Assembly: GCA_965215605.1 (NCBI GenBank)
Contig: OZ244070.1
Location: 3,648,001 to 3,712,000, forward strand
DNA length: 64,000 nucleotides
Source: an uncultured Candidatus Binatia bacterium
GTDB lineage: Bacteria > Desulfobacterota > Binatia > UBA9968 > JAJDTQ01
Direction: 5' to 3'
Shown here: positions 8,520-38,194 of the stretch, one piece after another
Numbering within the stretch: position 1 is the stretch's first letter
Layout of the letters: each line of letters starts with the position of its first letter
The notes under the pieces: model-generated
What the model was told of the DNA's origin: nothing
What the model saw: the letters and a program-made list of their open reading frames with translations, nothing else
The model's database searches: none
Position numbers and translations under genes: made by a program

Positions 8520-9080
8520 ATGATCAACGCGACACAGCTTCGGACGGGAATGATCATCATCTATGACGAGGCCCTCTACCGGGTCACCGCGGTCAAACAT
8601 CTCACTCCCGGAAAGGGCCATGGCTTCATGCAGACGAAGCTCAGGAACCTGCGGACCGGGGTGGGCACCGAGCACAAGTTCCGTTCCGACGACAGGGTCG
8701 ACCGGGCAACCCTGGAGAGCCGCGAGATGCAGTACCTCTTCGGCGAGGACGACCGTCACACGTTCATGGATACCGAGAGCTACGAGCAGACGGAGCTTTC
8801 GTCCGACGACGTGGGGGACATCCTGCCGTACCTCCTGCCCAACCAGATGGTGGTGGTGGAACTGTTCGACGGCAGTCCGGTGGGGGTGAGCCTGGCCTCC
8901 GCGGTGGAGTTGGAAGTGGTGGAGACCGAACCTTCCATGAAAGGCGCTACCGCCTCGGCCTCCTACAAACCGGCACGGCTGGAAACCGGCGTGACGGTCC
9001 AGGTGCCGCCGTTCATTCAGATCGGCGACCGGATTCGGGTGGATCCGTCTGAAGGAAAATATATCGAGCGGGCGAAGTAG
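8520..9080 (+). CDS. efp: Elongation factor P
   Basis: TPGKG loop, KPARLETG..VQVPPFI..GD.I.VD motifs; 186 aa. Confidence 0.97.
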   Translation: MINATQLRTGMIIIYDEALYRVTAVKHLTPGKGHGFMQTKLRNLRTGVGTEHKFRSDDRVDRATLESREMQYLFGEDDRHTFMDTESYEQTELSSDDVGDILPYLLPNQMVVVELFDGSPVGVSLASAVELEVVETEPSMKGATASASYKPARLETGVTVQVPPFIQIGDRIRVDPSEGKYIERAK

Positions 9081-9666
9081 CCAGGACGGCTTCCCAGACG
9101 CGCGCCACGATGTTCTCGAGTTCCTCGAGGGAGCCGTCGTTGTCAATGACGAAGTCCGCGAGCCGGCGCTTCTCCGCCAGTGACATTTGCGCTTTCAGAT
9201 GCCGTTGGATATCGGAGCCGTCAAGCCCGTCCCGGCTGCGCAGCCGCTGCTCCTGGAGGTCGCGCCGGCACGCCACGAGCAGAACCGGACGAAGCCAGTG
9301 ATGGATCTTCGCTTCGAAGAGGAGCGGTGCGTCGTAGATGACGAAGTCGTGCTCGCGGGAGTGTTCGACGATGCGTTTCCGCGCCAGCGCGCGAATGCGG
9401 GGATGGGTGATGGCTTCCAGCCGTTTCCGCTTCGGCGGATCCTGGAAGATGACGCGGCGGAGGTAGGAACGGTCGAGGGTCCGGTCTTCCCTGACCGACT
9501 CCGGACCGAAGAGGTCGACGATCTCGCGCCAGGCGTCCCGGCCCGGCTCGACGATCTCCCGCGCCAGCCGGTCGGCGTCGACGATGGCGGCCCGGTCGCT
9601 CAGGATGGCCGATACCGTGCTCTTTCCCGTGGCGATGCCCCCGGTCAATCCAAGGACCCTGGCCAT
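9013..9666 (-). CDS. coaE: Dephospho-CoA kinase
   Basis: GLTGGIATGKSTV, DAD, LEAITHP, DAPLLFE, ADFVIDN motifs. Confidence 0.95.
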   Translation of the reverse strand: MARVLGLTGGIATGKSTVSAILSDRAAIVDADRLAREIVEPGRDAWREIVDLFGPESVREDRTLDRSYLRRVIFQDPPKRKRLEAITHPRIRALARKRIVEHSREHDFVIYDAPLLFEAKIHHWLRPVLLVACRRDLQEQRLRSRDGLDGSDIQRHLKAQMSLAEKRRLADFVIDNDGSLEELENIVARVWEAVLATSPARYIFLQTDPPESGRRSE

Positions 9667-28773: not shown

Positions 28774-30623
28774 AGATCGAGGAGCTCAAGGAAAAGCTCG
28801 ACACCCTGCCCGCCGGTCCCGGCGTCTACCTGATGCGGGATCCGGCCGGAAAGGTGATCTACGTGGGCAAGGCGAAGGAGCTGCGGGCCCGGGTCCGCTC
28901 CTATCTGCGGGGCGGCGACGGACGGCCGCAGGTCGCTTTTCTCATGCGCCAGGCGGAGGACATCGAGACCCTGGTGACGAGCAACGAAAAGGAAGCGCTG
29001 ATCCTCGAGAACAACCTGATCAAGCAGTACAAGCCCCGCTACAACATCCGCCTCAAGGACGACAAGAGCTATCTGAGCATCAAGGTCACCGCGGGCGCGT
29101 GGCCGCGCATTCTGGCCACCCGCAGCATCGTCAAGGACGGCAGCCGCTATTTCGGACCCTACGCCTCGGCCGTAGCCGTGCGCGAGACCCTGGAGGTCAT
29201 CGAGAAGCACTTCCTGCTGCGGACCTGCACGGACTACAACTTCCGCAACCGCGACCGGCCGTGCCTTCAATTCCAGATCAAGCGCTGTCCCGCGCCCTGT
29301 GTCCATCCCGTGGATCCGGAGGAGTATGCCGGAAACCTCCGGCAAGCGGTGCTCTTCATCGAAGGCAAGAGCGCCGACCTGTTGCGGCACCTGCGCGTCC
29401 GCATGCAGGAGCGCGCCGCCGCGCTGGAGTTCGAGCAGGCGGCCAAGATCCGGGACCGCATCCGGGCGGTGGAGAAGACCCTGGAGAAGCAGCGCATGGT
29501 GTCCCACTGGGGTGCGGACCAGGACATCTTCGGGCTGTACCGGGAGGGGGGGTTCATCGAGGCCCAGGTGATCTTCGTGCGGCAGGGCAAGCTCACCGGC
29601 AACCAGGCCTATTCCCTCGAAGACCACCAGTTCGATGACGAGGAGATCGTCGCCGCGCTGCTGACTCAGTTCTACCAGGGAAGTCGCTTCGTTCCCGACG
29701 AAATTCTGCTGCCGGTGGACATCGAGGACCAGGCGGTGCACGAGGAGTATCTGGAGGAGCGCAAGGGCAGGAAGGTGACGTTGCACCGGCCGCGCCGGGG
29801 CGAGAAACACAAGCTGCTGGAAATGGCGCTGGAAAACGCTCGCCAGAGTTTCAGCGAACGGCACGACCAGGAGCGGGAACGGGAGAGAATGCTGCGGGAG
29901 CTGCAACTGAAGCTCCGCCTGAGACGGTATCCCCAGCGGATCGAGTGTTACGACATCTCCATGATCCAGGGCAGCCACGCGGTGGGGTCCCGGGTCTCGT
30001 TCTTCGACGGACAGCCGGACAAGCAGAACTACCGGCGCTACCGTGTCCGCACGGTCTCGCCCGAGACCCGCGGCGACGATTTCGCCATGATGTACGAGGT
30101 GGTCAAGCGGCGGTTCCAGCGGGGCCTGCGCGAAACCGACCTGCCGGACCTGATGGTGGTGGACGGCGGCAAGGGGCAGTTGCAGGTGGCTCTTGCCGCC
30201 TTGTCCGATCTTGGCGTGAGGGACGTGGAGGTGGTGGCCATGGCCAAGATGCGGGTCACGGCCTCGCCGCGGCTGGCCGAGATCGAACGGTCGGAGGAGC
30301 GGCTCTTCCTGCCCCATCGCAGCAACCCGGTGGTGCTGAGGCGCAATTCCAACGCCCTGTTTCTGCTGCAACGCATTCGGGATGAAGCCCACCGGTTCGC
30401 CATCACCTATCACCGGACCGTCCGCGGCCGTGAAACCCTTCGTTCCGGATTGGACGGCATCCCCGGCGTGGGGCCCGCCCGCAGGCGGGCGCTGTTGCGG
30501 CGTTTCGGCAGCCTGAAAAGGCTCCGCGACGCCTCGATGGAGGAACTGCTGGAGGTGCCGTCCATGACCCGACCCTTGGCCGAACGCATTCGCGATTCCC
30601 TGGAGACCGCGGACCGGCCGTGA
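28770..30623 (+). CDS. uvrC: Excinuclease ABC subunit C
   Basis: GVYLM..YVGKAK (GIY-YIG), Cys cluster, [24 protein letters not shown], HhH motifs. Confidence 0.98.
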
Positions 30624-32203
30624 AACCTCCGGGGCCCATGGCGCTCCTGGTCCTGCCGCTGCTGGCGCTCCTCGCCGGGCAGGCGGCGGCGGTTCCGGCC
30701 GCTCCCGGCGGACCGTCCTGGTGGAGCGGGGCGCTGTTGGCACCCGGTCTGGTCCTTTGCTTCATTCACCGCCGTTGGGGTTTGTTGGCGTTGGCGTGCG
30801 CGCTGGCGTTTCATTGGGGTCTGGCCGCCCATCACCGGCTGTTGCATCCCGGGTTTGCGCCGGGCCATGTCCGTCAACTCCCGGAGGGGCGGGAGCCGGT
30901 TCTCATCCGGGGACGGCTCTACCGTGAACCCGAGGGCAGGGGTGATTGGAGCCGCTGGTATCTCGCGGCGGAGCGGGCATGGACGCCGGAGGGGCCGCGG
31001 GCGGTCTCGGGGAACGTATTGGTCACGGTCCGGAACGCGTACCGCCACTGGCGCTACGGCGACGTCGTCCGGGTTCCTCTGCGCCTGCGGCCGCCCCGGA
31101 ACCGGGACGGCCGTTTCGATTACCGGGCGTTCCTGGCCCGGCGGGCGATCTATCGGGTGGCCTTCCTGCAAAACGACTGGGAGGCGGTGAGGGTGGAACG
31201 CGGCGGCGGGGTCCGCGGCTGGATCGAGACGGCGCGGCGGTGGATACGGCGGTTCGTGGAACGTCACTTCGAGCCGGACAGCGGCGGTCTGGTCAAGGCC
31301 TTGGTACTTGGGGACCGGGGCGGCCTTTCCCGGGAGACGCGGGAACGTTTCGCCGCCGTCGGCATGTCCCATGTGCTGTCCATCTCGGGCCTCCACGTGG
31401 GCATGCTCGGCTATGTGGCCTTCCTCGTGTTCCGCGGGCTCGCGTCGCGGAGCACCCGGCTGCTGTTGTCCGCTCCGGTCTACAAGCTGGCGGCCGCCGG
31501 CTCGTTGGTGCCGGTGATCCTGTACGCCGCCGTGGCGGGGGCGCGTATTCCCACGGTGCGAGCCGCCATCATGATCGGGCTGTACCATCTGGCCGTGTTG
31601 AGCGGGCGCCACGCCAACGTCTTTGGCGGCCTGGCGGTGGCCGCCCTCATTGCTGCCCTGTGGTGGCCAGGGGCGGTCATGGAGGTGTCGTTTCAGCTTT
31701 CCTTCCTGGCGGTGCTATCCATTGTCGGCGCCCTCCGGCTCTTCCGGCAGACGCGACTCCTGCGGCCTCCGGATGGTCCGGAGCGCGGTTGGTGGCAACG
31801 GCTGCGGCCGGTCGTCCTGCTGCCGACCCTGGTGCCCTTCTTCGCCGCCGTGGGTACCGGTCCGGTGGTGGCGCACCATTTCGGCTACCTGTCTCTCGCG
31901 GGCTTCATCGCCAATCCCCTGCTGGTGCCACTGGTGGGGTTCCTCATTGTGCCCGCGGGCCTGTTCATGGGCTTCCTGTGTCTGCTCTTCCCCGCGGCGG
32001 CGACCCTGCTGGTCGGAGTGGTGGAGATGTCCGTGTCGGCCCTCCTCTGGGCGGTGGGTCTCCTTGCGGCCCTCCCCATGGCAGCGCTTTCCGTGCCGAG
32101 ACCCGACCGGGTGACGGTGGGGGTCGCCTATCTGTTGATTCTCGCTGCGGTGGCATGCGCCCGCCGGTTCCTGCCGAGAGCGCCGCAAGGGCCCCTTGAT
32201 TGA
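30620..32203 (+). CDS. comEC: ComEC/Rec2 competence channel protein without a metallo-beta-lactamase domain
   Basis: FDYRAFL, ALVLGDR, GMSHVLSISGLHVG, RAAIM, SFQLSF motifs; many TM segments. Confidence 0.9.
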   Translation: MKPPGPMALLVLPLLALLAGQAAAVPAAPGGPSWWSGALLAPGLVLCFIHRRWGLLALACALAFHWGLAAHHRLLHPGFAPGHVRQLPEGREPVLIRGRLYREPEGRGDWSRWYLAAERAWTPEGPRAVSGNVLVTVRNAYRHWRYGDVVRVPLRLRPPRNRDGRFDYRAFLARRAIYRVAFLQNDWEAVRVERGGGVRGWIETARRWIRRFVERHFEPDSGGLVKALVLGDRGGLSRETRERFAAVGMSHVLSISGLHVGMLGYVAFLVFRGLASRSTRLLLSAPVYKLAAAGSLVPVILYAAVAGARIPTVRAAIMIGLYHLAVLSGRHANVFGGLAVAALIAALWWPGAVMEVSFQLSFLAVLSIVGALRLFRQTRLLRPPDGPERGWWQRLRPVVLLPTLVPFFAAVGTGPVVAHHFGYLSLAGFIANPLLVPLVGFLIVPAGLFMGFLCLLFPAAATLLVGVVEMSVSALLWAVGLLAALPMAALSVPRPDRVTVGVAYLLILAAVACARRFLPRAPQGPLD

Positions 32204-32339
32204 CTTTCCGGCACGCCTCTGTTAGCGATTATGCGTGTCGGCACGCGCCCCTCGGCGCGTGTAAATCCCCCAGTCGTCGGTCACCAACTCCCCTTATGAC
32301 AACCATCATTTCGTCGCGGGCGCCCGTTCGGGGGTGCAT

Positions 32340-33626
32340 ATGAAACTGACACGCATCAAGGGGTTCTCTGACGTGCTCCCTGGAGAAGTCGAAACTTGGC
32401 AGAGGATCGAGGACGCGGCGGTACGAGTATTTGCCACTTACAACTTCAAGGAGATTCGAGTTCCTGTCCTGGAGAAGTCGGAGCTTTTTTCGCGTTCGTT
32501 GGGGGAGTCCACCGATGTCATCGAGAAGGAGATGTACACGTTTGCCGACCGGGACGCCAAGGCGACGCTCCTGAGCCTCAGGCCCGAGGGCACGGCCGGC
32601 GTGGTACGGGCGTACGGCGAGGGCATGCTCCATCAGGTGGAGCCGGTGCGGAAGCTCTACTACCTGGGCCCCATGTTCCGGCGGGAACGGCCCCAGAAGG
32701 GGAGGCTGCGGCAGTTCCACCAGATCGGCGCCGAGGTTTTCGGCCGCACCGACCCCTTCATCGACGCGGAGCTGCTGCTGTTGCTGCGGGACCTCTGGGA
32801 GGAACTGGGAGTGGCGGGCACGGTCGTGGAGGTGAACTCCATCGGTTGCGTCCAATGCCGGCCCGGTTACCGCGCCGCGCTGGTGGCGTTTCTGGAACGG
32901 CATCGCGAGGAGCTGTGCGCCGACTGCGACCGGCGGCTGGAGCGCAACCCCCTCCGGGTGCTGGACTGCAAGCGCGAGTCGTGTGGAGGGATCGTGACCG
33001 CGGCGCCGTCGATCCGGTCGCATCTGTGCCCGGAGTGCCGGGACCACTTCGGCACCGTGCTCGACCTGTTGAAAGATTTGCGCCCGGAGCCCGTGGTCAA
33101 CGAACGGCTGGTGCGCGGGCTGGACTACTATTGCCGGACCACGTTCGAGTGGAAGGCCGGCGCGGGCCTGGGGAGCCAGAACACCGTGGCCGCGGGCGGA
33201 CGCTATGACGGCTTGGCGGAGTCCCTCGGGGGTCCGCCGGTGGCCGGCGTCGGCTTCGCGTTGGGCGTGGAGCGGCTGGCGCTGCTGCTTTCCGAGGGCG
33301 AAGCGGGCGAAAACGCCGCGCCGCTGCTGTACCTGGCCTGGATGGGCGAGGAAGCGCAGCGGTGGACGTTTTCCCTGGCCCATCGCCTGCGCCGGCGGGG
33401 TCTCCGGGTGGACCTGGAGGGCGAGTCCAGAAGCCTCAAGAGCCAGATGAAACGGGCCAACAAGTTGGGTGCACGGGCTGTCCTCATCGTGGGCGCCGAC
33501 GAGATGACAAGCTGTAAGGCGCTCGTACGCGACATGGCGACGAAGGAACAGACCGAGGTGGACTTCGCGGACGTCGATGACACTCTGGTCGCGCTTCGCG
33601 AAAGAGCAGACCAGGGTTCCGGGTGA
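32340..33626 (+). CDS. hisS: Histidyl-tRNA synthetase
   Basis: KEMYTF, LRPEGTAG, FRRERPQKGRLRQFHQ, LVRGLDYY, GGRYDGL motifs. Confidence 0.98.
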   Translation: MKLTRIKGFSDVLPGEVETWQRIEDAAVRVFATYNFKEIRVPVLEKSELFSRSLGESTDVIEKEMYTFADRDAKATLLSLRPEGTAGVVRAYGEGMLHQVEPVRKLYYLGPMFRRERPQKGRLRQFHQIGAEVFGRTDPFIDAELLLLLRDLWEELGVAGTVVEVNSIGCVQCRPGYRAALVAFLERHREELCADCDRRLERNPLRVLDCKRESCGGIVTAAPSIRSHLCPECRDHFGTVLDLLKDLRPEPVVNERLVRGLDYYCRTTFEWKAGAGLGSQNTVAAGGRYDGLAESLGGPPVAGVGFALGVERLALLLSEGEAGENAAPLLYLAWMGEEAQRWTFSLAHRLRRRGLRVDLEGESRSLKSQMKRANKLGARAVLIVGADEMTSCKALVRDMATKEQTEVDFADVDDTLVALRERADQGSG

Positions 33627-33630
33627 TCAC

Positions 33631-35427
33631 GTGAAAAACAGCAATGTGGATTTGATGGGCGACTGGCAGCGCAGCTGCCGCTGCGGCGAGCCCCGCGAGA
33701 GCGAGGTGGGCCGTGAACTCACCCTCATGGGCTGGACCCGGTCGCTGAGGGATCATGGCGGCCTGCTGTTCATCGACCTCCGGGACCGGACGGGTATCGT
33801 CCAGGTAGTGGTGAACCCGGAGGTGACGCCCGGGGCCCACGAGAAAGCCAAGCGGGTACGCTCCGAAGACGTGCTCGCGGTGCGTGGAAAGCTGGTGCGC
33901 CGTTCGGAGGAAACCGTCAACCCGAGCCTCCCCACCGGGACGGTGGAGCTCATGGCGCAGGAACTGCGCGTGCTGAACCCGTCGCAAGTGCCGCCGTTCC
34001 CGGTGGACGATGACGTCGAGCCCACCGAGACCAGCCGTTTCCGCTACCGCTATCTCGACCTGAGGCGGCCGCGCAGCCTGCGTCCGCTGGAGGTCCGGCA
34101 CCGCATGCTGACGGCCATTCGGAGCCATCTGAACGGGCTCTCGTTCATGGAGGTGGAAACACCGGTCCTCACCAAGAGCACGCCGGAGGGGGCCCGGGAC
34201 TACCTCGTTCCCAGCAGGATGCACCCGGGCAAGTTCTACGCGCTGCCGCAGTCGCCGCAGCTGTTCAAGCAGATTCTCATGGTGGGCGGGGTGGATCGGT
34301 ATTTCCAGGTGGTGCGCTGCTTCCGGGATGAGGACCTGCGCATGGACCGGCAGCCCGAGTTCACCCAGCTCGACATCGAGATGTCGTTCGTGCGCCCCGA
34401 GGACATCTTCGCCATGGTCGAGGGCATGATGGCGCGGGTCTTCCGGGAGGTGAAGGGAGTCGAGCTGGAGACGCCCTTTCGCCGCTTGAGCTGGGAAGAG
34501 GCCATGTCGCGGTACGGAACGGACAAGCCGGACCTGCGCTTCGGACTGGAGCTGGTGGAGCTGTCGGAGGCGTTCCAGGACTCCGGGGTAGCCATTTTCA
34601 AGCGGGCGCTGGCGGTCGGCGGCATCGTCAAGGGCCTGAAGGTGCCGGGAGCCGCCGACCTGTCGCGCAAGGAGCTGGACGACCTGACCGGACTGGTGGG
34701 CCGCTACGGCGCCAAGGGGCTGGCCTGGATCAAGGTACTGGAGGGCGAGTGGCAGTCGCCGCTGACGAAATTCCTGAGCGAGGGCGAGAAGGACGCGCTG
34801 CGGACCCTCACCCACGTACGGCCCGGCGACGTCATCTTCATGCTCGCCGATGACTTCGACGTCGTCAACGAGGGCCTCGCCAACCTGCGGCTGGAGATGG
34901 GACGAAGGCTGGGGCTGGTGCCGGAAGGCGCCCACGCCTTCGCCTGGGTCCTCGACTTCCCGCTGGTGGAGTGGAAGAAGGCGGAAGGCCGCTATAGCGC
35001 CGTGCACCATCCGTTCACCGCGCCACGGGAGGAAGACCTGCCGCTGCTCGAATCCGATCCCGCCCGGGTGAAGTCCCGCGCCTACGATCTGGTTCTGAAC
35101 GGCATGGAGATGGGCGGCGGCAGCATCCGGATCCATTCACCCGAGCTCCAGCGGCAAGTGCTGTCCCTGCTCGACGTGAAGCCCGAAACGATCGAGGAGC
35201 AGTTCGGGTTTCTTCTGGAGGCGCTGGACCTCGGCGCTCCGCCCCACGGGGGCATCGCCTTCGGCGTCGACCGCATGGCCATGCTCCTGAGCGATTCGCC
35301 CGCCATCCGGGACGTCATCGCGTTCCCCAAGAGCCAGCGCGCCGTATGCATGCTGACGGAGGCGCCGACCGCGGTGGATGCCCGCCAGCTTTCGGAGTTG
35401 CAGATCAGGACGCTGGCGGGGGACTAG
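33631..35427 (+). CDS. aspS: Aspartyl-tRNA synthetase
   Basis: RDHGG..FIDLRD, RYLDLRR, STPEGARDY, LPQSPQ, FRDED.R.DRQPEF, HHPFT, PPHGGIAFG motifs. Confidence 0.98.
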   Translation: MKNSNVDLMGDWQRSCRCGEPRESEVGRELTLMGWTRSLRDHGGLLFIDLRDRTGIVQVVVNPEVTPGAHEKAKRVRSEDVLAVRGKLVRRSEETVNPSLPTGTVELMAQELRVLNPSQVPPFPVDDDVEPTETSRFRYRYLDLRRPRSLRPLEVRHRMLTAIRSHLNGLSFMEVETPVLTKSTPEGARDYLVPSRMHPGKFYALPQSPQLFKQILMVGGVDRYFQVVRCFRDEDLRMDRQPEFTQLDIEMSFVRPEDIFAMVEGMMARVFREVKGVELETPFRRLSWEEAMSRYGTDKPDLRFGLELVELSEAFQDSGVAIFKRALAVGGIVKGLKVPGAADLSRKELDDLTGLVGRYGAKGLAWIKVLEGEWQSPLTKFLSEGEKDALRTLTHVRPGDVIFMLADDFDVVNEGLANLRLEMGRRLGLVPEGAHAFAWVLDFPLVEWKKAEGRYSAVHHPFTAPREEDLPLLESDPARVKSRAYDLVLNGMEMGGGSIRIHSPELQRQVLSLLDVKPETIEEQFGFLLEALDLGAPPHGGIAFGVDRMAMLLSDSPAIRDVIAFPKSQRAVCMLTEAPTAVDARQLSELQIRTLAGD

Positions 35428-35484
35428 CCAAGGCCAGCGACCCGGCCCGTCATGCCGAAGGTCGAGATGGCCCCGTTAAAGGCG

Positions 35485-35525
35485 AAGCACCCGTGCTTGC
35501 ACCAACCTCCCTGCTAATTTATAAA
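35485..35525 (+). promoter_or_regulatory. Sigma70-like promoter with a palindrome overlapping the -35 box
   Basis: TTGCAC (35497-35502)-17 bp-TATAAA (35520-35525); AAGCAC-CC-GTGCTT at 35485-35498. Confidence 0.6.
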
Positions 35526-35547
35526 GAAGGCCCTTCGGAGGTGAGCA

Positions 35548-35727
35548 ATGGCCAATCCGGTACCAAAGGATCGTGCAGAGTTGGACGCTGTGCCGGCTTC
35601 CAAAGAGGCTGGAGTGACCGAAGCGCTCGAACTCTATATGCGTGCTGAAGAGGTCTACGTGAAAGCCAACGCATCGTTCACAAACCCTCAGACTACCCGC
35701 ACTTCCAACTCTACCAACTCGGGATGA
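35548..35727 (+). CDS. Unannotated 59-aa protein MANPVPKDRAELDAVPASKEAGVTEALELYMRAEEVYVKANASFTNPQTTRTSNSTNSG
   Basis: GGAGGTG RBS upstream of ATG 35548; stop 4 nt before the protease TTG start; absent from the ORF track, whose shortest entries are 60 aa. Confidence 0.72.
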   Translation: MANPVPKDRAELDAVPASKEAGVTEALELYMRAEEVYVKANASFTNPQTTRTSNSTNSG

Positions 35728-35731
35728 CGCC

Positions 35732-36736
35732 TTGCCTACGTGGGGCGAGATCCTGAAAGAACTCCAGGCAAGCCGTGCGCCAAGCGGATCCGGGCCAGAC
35801 TTTGACGGTGTGCGGCGCGGCTATCTCCAGTCCGTGTACGAGCACACCGGCAGGCCGGTGATATTGTACTCCAGCGCGTGGTTGAGCGCCGCTGCCGCAC
35901 AGCCTGAGGCCCTTCAGATTACTTTGGCGGACATACAGGGGTTCATGGAGGTGCTCTCGAACATCGAGGGACCCGAACTTGACCTCATCGTTCACAGCCC
36001 CGGGGGCTCAGCCGAGGCAGCGGAATCCATAGTGGAGTACCTGCGGCAACGGTTCACGCACATCCGTGTGTTTGTGCCGCTTGCCGCGATGTCCGCCGCC
36101 ACCATGATAGCGCTTGCCGCGGACGAAATCGTTTTTGGGCAGCACTCTCAACTAGGACCGATCGATCCCCAGTTCATCATCCAAACCCCCGAGGGACCGC
36201 GCTCAGCACCCGCGAAGGCGATTTTGAACCAGTTCAATCAAGCCAAGGAAGAGTGCGAGGATCCGCGGAACTTGCCTGCTTGGCTGCCTATTCTTCGCAG
36301 CTACGCTCCGGGTCTGCTGAATCAGTGTCAAAACTCGCGGGACCTCGCAGCCAAGATGGTCGAGTCCTGGTTGGCCCGGTATATGTTCCAGGGGAGGCTC
36401 GATGCGGAGGATGAGGCAAGACGGATTGCGGACTGGTTCAGTGACTATGACGAGTTCCAGTCCCACGGGCGGCGCGTTGGCGTGGAACTCGCCTCAGACC
36501 AAGGGCTCCGTATCGAGCGGCTAGAAGATGACGACGAGACGCAGGATCGGATCCTGTCCGTCCATCACGCCACCATGCACACGTTTGCGCAAACACCGGC
36601 TCTCAAGATTATCGAGAACCATCTTGGCCGGTCATGGGTTTTGCTTGGAGGCGTGGCTGCAGTGCCAAGAGCACCTCAACACCCGCCCGCACCTCCGAAC
36701 CGAGTCGAACGGAGACGCCAGCCGAAGAGGCCGTGA
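35732..36736 (+). CDS. Soluble ClpP-class/S49-like serine protease (SDH_sah-type)
   Basis: LDLIVHSPGG, AMSAATMIAL (nucleophile Ser), LGPIDPQ, SHGR (candidate catalytic His); no signal peptide or TM segment. Confidence 0.88.
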   Translation: MPTWGEILKELQASRAPSGSGPDFDGVRRGYLQSVYEHTGRPVILYSSAWLSAAAAQPEALQITLADIQGFMEVLSNIEGPELDLIVHSPGGSAEAAESIVEYLRQRFTHIRVFVPLAAMSAATMIALAADEIVFGQHSQLGPIDPQFIIQTPEGPRSAPAKAILNQFNQAKEECEDPRNLPAWLPILRSYAPGLLNQCQNSRDLAAKMVESWLARYMFQGRLDAEDEARRIADWFSDYDEFQSHGRRVGVELASDQGLRIERLEDDDETQDRILSVHHATMHTFAQTPALKIIENHLGRSWVLLGGVAAVPRAPQHPPAPPNRVERRRQPKRP

Positions 36737-36987
36737 TCGATAGGTCAAAACCTGCAGCCTGCCAGACAGGTCTGGTCTGAGCAAAGCGTAGTGATTCCCT
36801 TTGGGCGCTTGAGTAGCGGTAGCTCGTGATCATCCCACGGGGAAACCTGGGAGACGCCTCTAAGCAACGGCTAGGATCGCGCACATGATACCCTTCAATC
36901 CTAGCCAACATCCCTTCCTCATTCTTCGGGTTACGCCGTGCAATGGGAATTTGTCAGTGGGTGAGAGAGGGACGGCCGGGATAGCTC

Positions 36988-37521
36988 CTAGCGGTCCGTC
37001 CAGTAGCGGGCCAACTCCTTCAGGTAGGTCAGCGTCGAGAGATCGGGCATGCGGTCGAGGTAGACGCGACCGCGCAGGTGATCCACCTCGTGCTGAATGA
37101 CCCGGGCGTGGAAACCGGACGCAACGAAGTCCAGTTCGTTGCCCTGACGGTCCAAGGCGGTCACCCGCAATCTGCCGTAGCGAGGTACTCTGCCGCGCAA
37201 CTCGGGGATGCTGAGACATCCCTCCCAGTCCTCCTCGGTCTCGTCCCCCAAGGGGATGATCTCCGGGTTGACGAGGACCGAAAGGGGCACCGGCGCTTTC
37301 CCGGGGTAACGGGCGTTGTCGGCAACCTCCAGCACGGCCACCTGAACGGGTTCGTGGACCTGCACGGCGGCGAGGCCGACGCCTTGGTACTCGCGCATGG
37401 TCGTCACCATGTCGTCGATGAAGCGTTGGAAGTCGGGTTGCGCCACCTGCTCTGCGGGAACGTCCCGGGCGGGATTGCGTAGCACGGGATTGCCGAGGCG
37501 CGCTACCTTGAGAATGGCCAT
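36988..37521 (-). CDS. def: Peptide deformylase
   Basis: GVGLAAVQ, EGCLS, QHEVDHL motifs; start MAILK at 37521. Confidence 0.96.
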   Translation of the reverse strand: MAILKVARLGNPVLRNPARDVPAEQVAQPDFQRFIDDMVTTMREYQGVGLAAVQVHEPVQVAVLEVADNARYPGKAPVPLSVLVNPEIIPLGDETEEDWEGCLSIPELRGRVPRYGRLRVTALDRQGNELDFVASGFHARVIQHEVDHLRGRVYLDRMPDLSTLTYLKELARYWTDR

Positions 37522-37590
37522 GGGGCTTCCTAACACGCCGTTTCCGGTTCGTTCAAGAAACCGCTGCTTCGGTCCGTCCGTGTCGACGGT

Positions 37591-37620
37591 TTGACAACAT
37601 GGATGTATTAGGTCTATATT
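37591..37620 (+). promoter_or_regulatory. Putative sigma70 promoter of the Rrf2-suf operon
   Basis: TTGACA-18 bp-TATATT. Confidence 0.55.
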
Positions 37621-37753
37621 TGGGTACGAGCGGATTGTTCGAAGATTCGTATTCATGAGTGTGCACCCATTTGCGGGGCGCAACACCAGGGGACTCGGCA
37701 TGCAAGAAGCCGCTGTGAATACCGCCAGGACCACCACCGACCGCAGCTCGCTC

Positions 37754-38194
37754 ATGAACATCGGGAGGAAGGTCGACTATGCCGTGCGGGCGCTCTCGTA
37801 TCTGGCGGCCCAGCCGCAACGCTGGGTGGTGGGCAGCAAGGAGATCGCCGAGCGGCAGGATATTCCCACCCACTTCATGTCGAAGATCATGAAAGATCTG
37901 GCGTCGGCGGGGCTCGTGGACTCCCACGTGGGCCGCAAGGGCGGCTTCAGCCTGGCGAGACTCCCCGAGTCCATCAACCTCAAGGAAGTCTACGAGGCGG
38001 TGGAGAAGCCGTTGACCCTCATGGCGTGCCTGGACCGGGATCATCGTTGCTGTGCGTACGACTCCGTCTGCACACAGATTTCGGTATGGGAGCGGGCGCA
38101 GATACTCTTGGCGGACTATCTGGCCGGGATCTCCATCGGCAGCATTGCCGACCGGGAGGGTCTCAAGGGTCGGTTGAACCGTCTGGACAGTTGA
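37754..38194 (+). CDS. Rrf2 family regulator (IscR-like, Cys-rich C-terminus)
   Basis: DYAVRAL, IAERQDIP, G.KGGFSLAR, C-LDRDHR-CC-AYDSV-C; heads the suf operon. Confidence 0.9.
   Translation: MNIGRKVDYAVRALSYLAAQPQRWVVGSKEIAERQDIPTHFMSKIMKDLASAGLVDSHVGRKGGFSLARLPESINLKEVYEAVEKPLTLMACLDRDHRCCAYDSVCTQISVWERAQILLADYLAGISIGSIADREGLKGRLNRLDS

Follow-up and report, generated by a model that had tools for sequence, protein, structure and literature searches.

Between the genes aspS and def of an uncultured Candidatus Binatia bacterium lies a cassette of about 1.3 kb, which comprises a gene for a small protein and, immediately after it, a gene for a serine protease with ClpP fold. The DNA analysed, a stretch of 64,000 nucleotides (nt) of contig OZ244070.1 (positions 3,648,001 to 3,712,000), is referred to as the window, and the features of the cassette and its surroundings are compiled in Table 1. 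The stop codon of the small gene (TGA, 35725-35727) is separated from the TTG start codon of the protease gene by the 4-nt spacer CGCC. An earlier note, made from the letters of this DNA, had described the open reading frame (ORF) of 59 codons with its ribosome binding site (RBS) GGAGGTG, the spacing of 4 nt and the TTG-started ORF of 334 amino acids (aa). All of these were confirmed in the sequence, and the peptide strings quoted there (GVTEALELYMRAEEVYVKANAS and TNPQTTRTSNSTNSG) as well as the motifs HSPGG, SAATM and LGPIDPQ are present. The lower guanine and cytosine (GC) content noted for the cassette between aspS and def was also found again (0.598, compared to 0.652 in the flanks and 0.651 in the whole window). 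Along the sequence, the GC content is 0.56-0.62 over about 35350-37150 and 0.64-0.73 in the flanks.

To describe the conservation of the small ORF, 77 related loci (denoted by L and a number) were taken from one-genome-per-species contigs and 74 of them were scanned; L070-L072 were left out, their match consisting of a C-terminal piece of the protease only. Starts of the small ORFs were picked by motif distance and by Shine-Dalgarno-like (SD-like) sites. Most of the related loci come from metagenome-assembled genomes (MAGs), in which taxonomic labels and some of the frameshifts may be wrong. An ORF of the shared design ending close to the protease start was found in 67 loci in the first scan, and re-reading of the misses yielded five more (L018, L019, L024, L055 and L060, the last at a contig edge). 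In the two loci left, upstream sequence is missing (L050) or the small ORF is unclear (L074). That the small ORF should be kept upstream of protease homologues had been set beforehand as a check, and a homologue indeed adjoins the protease gene in 72 of the 73 informative loci, from bacteria as well as archaea. The small gene comes first, the gap to the protease gene ranges from -29 to +24 nt in most loci, and most of the homologous small ORFs have an SD-like motif in front of the start picked for them. Three of the 72 small genes are damaged, by a frameshift (L035) or by in-frame stops upstream (L068, L073).

An alignment of 64 small proteins (A1) revealed the core (P/A)21-G22-(V/I)23-x-(D/E)25-L-M-x-x-Y30, with G22 in 59, V/I23 in 62, D/E25 in 60 and Y30 in 61 of the 64 sequences. 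Two predicted amphipathic helices are followed by a hydrophobic stretch and a tail with the motif Ser/Thr-Asn/Asp-Ser/Thr, which is replaced by TG(G/A)N in an actinobacterial-type clade. This C-terminal motif stands at a fixed distance of about 24-28 residues from Y30, and a variable extension follows. A net negative charge was calculated for 45 of the 64 proteins.

The ratio of nonsynonymous to synonymous substitution rates (dN/dS) in the frame of the small ORF was 0.07-0.32 in 13 of 17 pairs, the other four being saturated, and about 0.4-4.5 in the other two frames. A family profile matched 86 small 'hypothetical' proteins in a set of 5.8 billion sequences and 640 clusters in a representative set of 1.84 billion. 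The best 150 of these 640 clusters all have lengths of 47-143 aa; among them, the match reaches the C-terminal end in nearly all cases and no fusion of the small protein to a larger protein was found. The small ORF is thus a real gene, under purifying selection. Pfam, NCBIfam and PHROGs gave no match for the window peptide and none that was consistent among the 64 members, and a sequence search of the PDB with the peptide returned nothing. A signal peptide or membrane segment is absent from both the small protein and the protease.

The protease matches the Pfam family PF01972 (SDH_protease) with 66.1 bits at a gathering threshold of 31.3, in line with the classification as a ClpP-fold protease of the SDH_sah type given in the earlier note; SDH_sah and DUF114 are older names of this family. 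This match is partial and covers protein residues 82-153, corresponding to profile positions 93-163 of 286. Seven relatives from phages and plasmids score 41-80 bits against the same family. With the NCBIfam equivalog model NF047768 (SDH family Clp fold serine proteinase) 78.7 bits were reached, below the cut-off of 250. The window protease has the catalytic core in common with PF01972 and NF047768 (HSPGG, the Ser121 segment and GPIDPQ). Beyond this core, members of its subfamily start with an invariant MP(T/S)WGEIL and have a C-terminal half, about 150 residues long, that is conserved. A full-length match was obtained to phrog_11747 (8e-79), whose function is unassigned in PHROGs. The name 'SDH' of the Pfam family stands for the order Ser-Asp-His, on which the candidate role of Asp145 is based.

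Scores of the window protease for related families stayed below threshold, namely for ClpP (PF00574, 18.6 bits, gathering threshold 20.2), S49 SppA (TIGR00706, 19.3 compared to 155.45) and NfeD1b_N (PF25145, 33.6 compared to 40). PF25145.2 is listed for homologues of the protease in the precomputed Pfam column of the database, and the ESM Atlas entries for the stored homologue P0086 are SDH_protease clusters only. A homologue search that scored the 8000 candidates with most words in common gave at least 3391 database matches. The best 120 of them have lengths of 263-356 aa and are mostly unnamed or called 'serine protease'. Fused or longer relatives of the protease were not found.

In an alignment of 55 proteases from bacteria and archaea (A2), M1, P2, W4, G5, H88, G91, G92, S121, H245 and H279 are invariant, and D145 is conserved in at least 90%. 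The best relative with a solved structure is PH1510-N, a protease of the NfeD/STOPP type from Pyrococcus horikoshii (PDB 3bpp/2deo; E = 2e-4, residues 82-167), and a PDB sequence search with the protease returned this 1510-N core only. According to PMC3795559, 1510-N is a serine protease with ClpP fold and a catalytic dyad Ser97-Lys138, encoded in the same operon as the stomatin it cuts. A hydrophobic peptide is bound in extended form beneath a flexible loop, the site cut is VIVL|MLPM, and activity depends on the L2 loop (residues 126-133), which lies over the substrate (PMC3795559). Ser97 aligns with S121 of the window protease, but Lys138 aligns with the near-invariant Ala163, and the neighbouring residue 162 varies (K/R/Q/H/E). 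The window protease is therefore not a Ser-Lys enzyme. Furthermore, 1510-N is membrane-bound and has an SPFH partner in a housekeeping operon, whereas the protease described here appears soluble and is encoded with a soluble 59-aa partner on a mobile cassette. Its most hydrophobic window of 19 residues is the buried segment of the catalytic Ser, with a Kyte-Doolittle mean of 1.83 (family median 1.47). Since this peak belongs to the catalytic core only, the protease is, as far as its sequence tells, soluble and without membrane anchor, as the earlier note had stated.

Table 1. Features of the two-gene cassette and its surroundings in the window.
Feature	Position	Strand	Basis
Small-protein gene, 59 codons, ATG start	35548-35727	+	ORF list
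Protease gene, 334 aa, TTG start at 35732	35732-36736	+	ORF list
Shine-Dalgarno site GGAGGTG of the small gene	35538-35544	+	3 nt 5' of ATG 35548
HSPGG motif H88-G92, likely oxyanion-hole region	35993-36007	+	aligned with TPGG of 1510-N; putative role
Ser121 codon, predicted nucleophile	36092-36094	+	invariant, n = 55; aligned with Ser97 of 1510-N
Asp145 codon in GPIDPQ, candidate triad Asp	36164-36166	+	at least 90% of 55; putative role
Loop I150-S158 (IQTPEGPRS), equivalent of the 1510-N L2 loop	36179-36205	+	alignment mapping
His245 codon (SHGR), candidate triad His; His279 alternative	36464-36466	+	both invariant, n = 55
3' end of cassette, common to the window and the related Binatia genome L001	36737-36791	+	similarity to 36791
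Promoter-like site TTGCAC-17-TATAAA, weak	35497-35525	+	sequence reading
Lower-GC islet, aspS to def	35430-36990	no strand	GC comparison
aspS	33577-35427		Pfam tRNA-synt_2/GAD
def	36988-37761	minus, convergent	Pfam Pep_deformylase

The TTG start of the protease gene is backed by homology, because the proteins of all 72 loci scored open with MP(T/S)WGEIL; these eight residues are nearly invariant, and W4 is present without exception. The start codon is ATG in 68 of these loci, TTG in three and GTG in one. The codons of the first eight residues use all synonymous forms, indicating that the N-terminal constraint acts on the protein. An SD-like motif is found 5' of the protease start in 36 of the 72 loci; translational coupling to the small gene is plausible, but not universal. 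The tail of the window protease (residues about 305-334, 36640-36736) is Pro-rich and then strongly basic (NR(A/V)ERRRQ...). This basic end is confined to the clade of Chloroflexota, Nitrospirota and Binatia, and the proteases of the other clades end Pro/Gln-rich.

No further ORF of at least 80 aa occurs in more than seven of 73 loci, except for a shadow ORF on the antisense strand within the protease gene, and there is hence no third conserved gene. Distances between the peptides correlate with those between the proteases (Mantel r = 0.60 overall, 0.67 in one clade and 0.74 in another; none of 999 permutations reached such values). The peptide diverges faster, with a mean distance of 0.76 compared to 0.48 for the protease. 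Antitoxins usually evolve faster than their partners. Truncated proteases were found in 8 of 64 loci, with tblastn similarity continuing, as expected of a dispensable gene; some of these truncations could be assembly errors of the MAGs. Seven of the eight loci with a broken protease retain an intact small gene, and none of the 56 complete proteases is without one.

Comparison of the DNA between loci revealed a single block of similarity at the cassette with unrelated flanks in 12 of 17 locus pairs (68-92% identity). Usually this block extends from about 160-330 nt upstream to about +890-1030, relative to the protease start. Pairs sharing the cassette only are L028/L033, L028/L064, L032/L036, L010/L020, L026/L062 and L034/L042. 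The last of these combines a Geoglobus archaeon (L034, 3543-4839) and an Aquificota bacterium (L042, 2389-3676) with 90.5% nt identity, explained either by a recent transfer between the domains or by a binning error. Exceptions are L048/L051, with similarity about 750 nt beyond the cassette, and the Nitrospirales loci, where L006 shares extra flank blocks with L007, L003 and L076. In 47 of 54 loci the cassette has a lower GC content than its flanks (mean difference -0.056), and the three clades of the protease tree cut across phyla and domains. Archaeal copies have in common an AT-rich stretch before the genes, which contains an RBS, and about 50 nt after them, in which a hairpin is found, so that the cassette carries its own expression signals. 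Because DNA similarity between genomes whose cassettes are 80-92% identical stops at the cassette edges, we regard the pair as the transferred unit. Together with the lack of a conserved third gene, this bears out the stand-alone mobile module proposed earlier: the pair is a stand-alone horizontally mobile unit of bacteria, archaea and temperate phages.

In a related Binatia chromosome (L001) the same order hisS-aspS-cassette-def was found, with about 93% identity over 30000-36791 of the window and about 96-97% in the cassette region alone. Similarity to the window continues to 36791 and resumes at 36966. Between these points, L001 contains about 2.0 kb (7061-9081) with an ORF for an rve integrase (7525-8781, minus strand) in place of 174 unrelated bases of the window (36792-36965); this insert is probably an insertion sequence (IS) or its remnant. 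The shared site in both genomes indicates that the cassette predates their split and that the adjoining spot accepts insertions.

Up to two ORFs on each side of the pair were compared with Pfam in 72 loci (242 ORFs). In 21 of these loci, restriction-modification, toxin-antitoxin, defence, integrase, transposase or phage genes are among the neighbours. Restriction-modification genes are found in 11 loci (L003, L004, L006, L021, L031, L047, L057, L061, L065, L068 and L075). Neighbours of defence type are TIR_2 with AAA_15/DUF3226 (L003), SocA_Panacea (L007), DarT with Macro (L021) and HepT (L042). Integrases or transposases adjoin in L001, L012, L033, L034, L052 and L056, and phage genes in L011 and L013. 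A transfer RNA (tRNA) gene lies within the locus in 8 of 60 cases and is adjacent only in L027 and L056. In the Dehalococcoidia genome L021, a DarT-Macro pair resembling DarTG is located directly 3' of the cassette (7290-9100). In L003 (Nitrospirales), the cassette is flanked by TIR, DUF3226 and AAA_15/AAA_21 ORFs and a Type ISP restriction enzyme (4827-5711, 7504-9273).

The protease gene was also detected in 7 of 50,697 records of isolated-phage genomes, in accessory positions, and in 16 of 72,556 plasmid records. In Gordonia phage BeeGee (MW601219.1) the pair follows the gene for a minor tail protein; the protease is gene 31, a 'hypothetical protein', and the 58-aa homologue of the peptide, unannotated, overlaps the ATG of gene 31 in the sequence ATGA (L078, 3825-4001; E = 0.002 with a local hidden Markov model). 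The pair stands beside HicAB in Porphyromonas prophages, and in a Mu-like Shewanella phage the protease gene follows the gene of a late-transcription regulator. On a Klebsiella plasmid, a 67-aa homologue, annotated in this case, and the protease are encoded in a lambdoid region, between replication and RusA/antiterminator genes, and on an Acidiphilium plasmid the pair is located beside MbcA/RES and IS1. Relatives of the protease with 34-39% identity occur in a P. aeruginosa phage-plasmid, the Shewanella Mu-like phage and the Porphyromonas prophages. Upstream of them are small ORFs of 66-112 aa with Thr/Ser-rich ends (L082 4808-5008, L079 3652-3924, L080 3655-3993), in which no homology to the peptide family was detectable.

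More distant members of SDH_protease (27-29% identity) have a tightly linked small ORF, too, but downstream. This applies e.g. for lambdoid prophages of E. coli (L084 2044-3885, L087 2733-4574), in which a protease of the SDH family and a 56-aa ORF are only 1 nt apart. As in the window, a protease matching SDH_protease (41 bits) is tightly coupled to a small ORF; the E. coli protease, named 'SDH family Clp fold serine proteinase' in RefSeq, shows 28% identity over 60% of the window protease, and its downstream small ORF shows no detectable homology. Of 5426 complete E. coli genomes, 20 contain this pair, on the same strand 3' of a cI-like repressor of the LexA family and ahead of ral, cIII, kil and gam, a slot which is expressed in lysogens and which we take to be the place of rexAB in the phage lambda map. 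The Klebsiella copy, used as a query against E. coli DNA, had no match.

The protease family is already listed in Pfam, NCBIfam and PHROGs without function, whereas the small partner and the pair are undescribed in the literature searched, in which no function of the protease family or of the pair and no toxin-antitoxin family with a ClpP-fold protease as toxin was found. The main texts of PMC12366544, bioRxiv 10.1101/2025.01.08.631966, PMC13069673 and PMC3632139 contain no ClpP-like or SDH entry. PF01972, SDH, NfeD and S49 are likewise absent from the supplements of PMC13069673 and PMC12366544, the bioRxiv supplements and newer libraries of defence models being outside this scope. The statement of the earlier note that no characterised system has this layout therefore holds for PADLOC, NCBIfam, Pfam, PHROGs (for the peptide) and this literature.

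Among known systems, IetAS is comparable in its design. As described in PMC13069673, it is a toxin-antitoxin pair with a serine protease as toxin and an AAA-ATPase as antitoxin, and it is also listed as anti-phage. Both are two-gene mobile modules, and in IetAS the serine protease is harmful and restrained by its partner, harm and restraint being features of IetAS (PMC13069673, citing Yamamoto 2009). The partner is a large ATPase there and a small peptide here, and the two systems show no sequence relationship (no PADLOC match). The protease IetS is subtilisin-like, i.e. it has a different fold. Type II toxin-antitoxin systems are similar to the pair in that the first gene encodes a small acidic protein that looks labile, the two genes overlap or are closely spaced, the small partner evolves faster, and the distribution is patchy and mobile, beside other toxin-antitoxin or restriction-modification genes.

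Layout, mobility, genomic company and the fast-evolving acidic small partner match such modules. We therefore tentatively read the pair as an autonomous mobile operon of toxin-antitoxin-like or abortive-infection type, in which the small protein would restrain the protease with its tail in the substrate cleft; we consider this reading somewhat less than evenly likely to be right. The effector would be the cytosolic ClpP-fold serine protease, with Ser121 as predicted nucleophile and Asp145 and either His245 or His279 as further candidate residues of the active site. The small acidic protein would be made first, from the same transcript, and bind the protease via its conserved helical core PGV-x-D/E-L-M-x-x-Y. 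Its tail, hydrophobic and then rich in Ser/Thr/Asn, would lie in the substrate cleft under the loop after GPIDPQ and act as a pseudo-substrate or a slowly cleaved inhibitor. If the supply of the small protein failed, by loss of the cassette or by phage shut-off of host expression, the protease might be freed and cut cellular or phage proteins. In this scheme the pair itself, its strict linkage, the purifying selection, the mobility as a unit, the genomic company and the conservation of the active site are observed, and binding, inhibition, toxicity, trigger and targets would follow from the reading. IetAS may serve as a precedent, by analogy, for a serine protease as toxin (PMC13069673).

A hint to a position of the tail in the cleft comes from the loop after GPIDPQ (about 150-158), where the core of the protease differs in length and sequence according to the class of peptide tail. 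It has 12 residues in 42 of 43 measurable proteases of the Ser/Thr-Asn/Asp-Ser/Thr class, with eight in L058. In the TG(G/A)N class it has 8-10 residues in 6 of 10 measurable proteases, and 12 in L018, L019, L026 and L062. This loop aligns with the L2 loop of 1510-N, which covers the bound substrate (PMC3795559).

Several observations weigh against the proposed toxin-antitoxin-like or abortive-infection module. The correspondence of loop and tail class amounts to only two changes on the tree and may reflect shared ancestry; it is a lead. Retention of the small gene beside broken proteases fits an antitoxin, but the 5.6-fold difference in target size predicts the same pattern. The linkage data fit a positive co-factor or a processed substrate equally well. 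No match to helix-turn-helix, ribbon-helix-helix or AbrB domains was found in the window peptide and no consistent one in the 64 members; a recognisable DNA-binding domain is therefore absent, unlike in many type II antitoxins, where it is common, though not universal. PADLOC-DB v2.0.0 (2023) has no model that matches the window pair or any of 12 proteins of its seven relatives from phages and plasmids. Neighbours in 51 of the 72 loci are housekeeping or unknown genes, as in the window, and the enrichment of defence and mobile genes in the others is a judgement from the general rarity of such genes, made without a background rate. Judged by its same site in both genomes, the cassette is not a very recent arrival in Binatia. 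Furthermore, the small ORFs linked to the distant SDH proteases are not detectably homologous to the window peptide.

Alternatively, the small protein might be a positive partner of the protease, i.e. an assembly factor, adaptor or activator for other targets, serving regulation or counter-defence on mobile elements. We consider this unlikely, but by no means negligible. Strict co-occurrence and co-inheritance fit it as well as they fit inhibition, including the absence of an intact protease without small gene among the 56 complete ones. The pair occurs in early or regulatory regions of temperate phages, and the gene order is not fixed in distant relatives. However, the hydrophobic tail followed by Ser/Thr/Asn is more like a substrate strand, as a comparison with the cut site of 1510-N suggests (PMC3795559). 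Moreover, no target-binding domain was found in either protein, and copies standing alone in a chromosome, between housekeeping genes, are not part of an element that they could regulate.

It is less likely again that the small protein is a dedicated substrate, which would be cut near the Ser/Thr-Asn/Asp-Ser/Thr motif so that an active piece is set free, be it a signal within the cell, a toxin peptide or a product resembling ribosomally synthesized and post-translationally modified peptides (RiPPs). A precursor-first gene order and a motif at fixed distance from Y30 with a variable extension behind it would suit such processing, and the STOPP protease, which cuts the stomatin partner of its operon, offers a precedent (PMC3795559). 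On the other hand, conserved genes for a modifying enzyme, an exporter or a receptor are missing from the neighbourhood, the motif region is conserved and not hypervariable, and many archaeal copies have 2-3 residues after the motif, which leaves little to release. There is neither a third conserved gene nor a layout of leader and hypervariable core, as would be typical of a RiPP or signalling cassette. Since both proteins lack membrane segments and signal peptides and the surroundings contain no conserved exporter, the processing of a peptide signal, which the earlier note had listed among its examples, is unlikely. The co-factor and the substrate were ranked lower than the inhibitor because the tail is substrate-like while conserved downstream machinery is absent, and because many copies stand alone in the chromosome.

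It is highly improbable that the pair is what remains of a phage module for head assembly, with a prohead protease and a scaffold-like partner and without present cellular function. Phage head-maturation proteases (NF045542, phrog_94/53/1684) have a ClpP-fold core in common with the window protease, which gives weak matches (39.5 bits for NF045542, 6.5e-11 for phrog_94). These scores are below the cut-offs, that of NF045542 far below (cut-off 120), the matches are limited to residues 69-141, and the full-length match is to phrog_11747 with its unassigned function. Capsid or portal genes are not conserved beside the pair, its position in the three phage contexts inspected is outside that of a head protease, and both genes are under purifying selection across domains. 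Finally, that the 59-codon ORF is a chance open frame before a lone protease gene would fit its shortness and its missing annotation in the public record of phage BeeGee, but is refuted by a dN/dS well below 1 in its own frame only and by the 640 family clusters in the protein library, besides its conservation across domains, and has practically no chance of being right.

Some further ideas about the small protein were dropped. An N-glycosylation sequon was discarded because the Asn is often Asp, and a Pup-like or ubiquitin-like tag because no ligase genes are nearby. A C-terminal Asn as in MccA was given up since no gene of the MccB type is conserved; an ORF of the ThiF family occurs in L077 only.

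Returning to the toxin-antitoxin-like or abortive-infection reading, a wider version of it would make the cassette a member of a very widespread class of such protease-based systems, in which a pseudo-substrate mini-protein silences a ClpP-fold protease within a 1.3-kb unit reaching from promoter to terminator. Related SDH pairs, including that of the E. coli prophages, would then be exclusion genes expressed in lysogens. This version is rather unlikely, more so than the narrower reading. The protease is carried by thousands of genomes, with a partner gene small enough to be missed by annotation. If addiction or defence by the protease should prove true, the pair would represent a new type of effector in prokaryotic conflict systems, a self-contained ClpP-fold protease. 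A pseudo-substrate mini-protein would be a new regulatory logic, an orphan Pfam family would gain a function, and a compact pair of protease and inhibitor working in bacteria and archaea would be at hand. If otherwise, the strict pairing and the mobility at the level of the cassette still need an explanation.

Concerning expression in the window, the sequence TTGCAC-17-TATAAA described as a promoter in the earlier note is present, but as a promoter it is weak, with 8 of 12 positions agreeing with the sigma-70 consensus compared to a mean of 6.9 in shuffled sequences, and it is absent from the output of a sigma-70 consensus scan. L001 has the same -10 hexamer and a -35 hexamer differing by one base (TTGCAC/TTGCGC). 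Stronger promoter-like sites with 11 of 12 positions of the sigma-70 consensus were found in related cassettes, e.g. L013 and L022. A terminator-like hairpin was not found 3' of the window protease gene, nor were RNA families (Rfam, 30-42 kb of the window), tRNA genes near the cassette or a second copy of the cassette within the window. Flanking direct or inverted repeats marking a transposable unit were not convincing in the window or in L056. The convergent def ORF on the 3' side encodes 257 aa, yet its Pep_deformylase domain starts at residue 83; the true start of def is probably at a later codon, which would extend the non-coding gap after the cassette to more than 250 nt.

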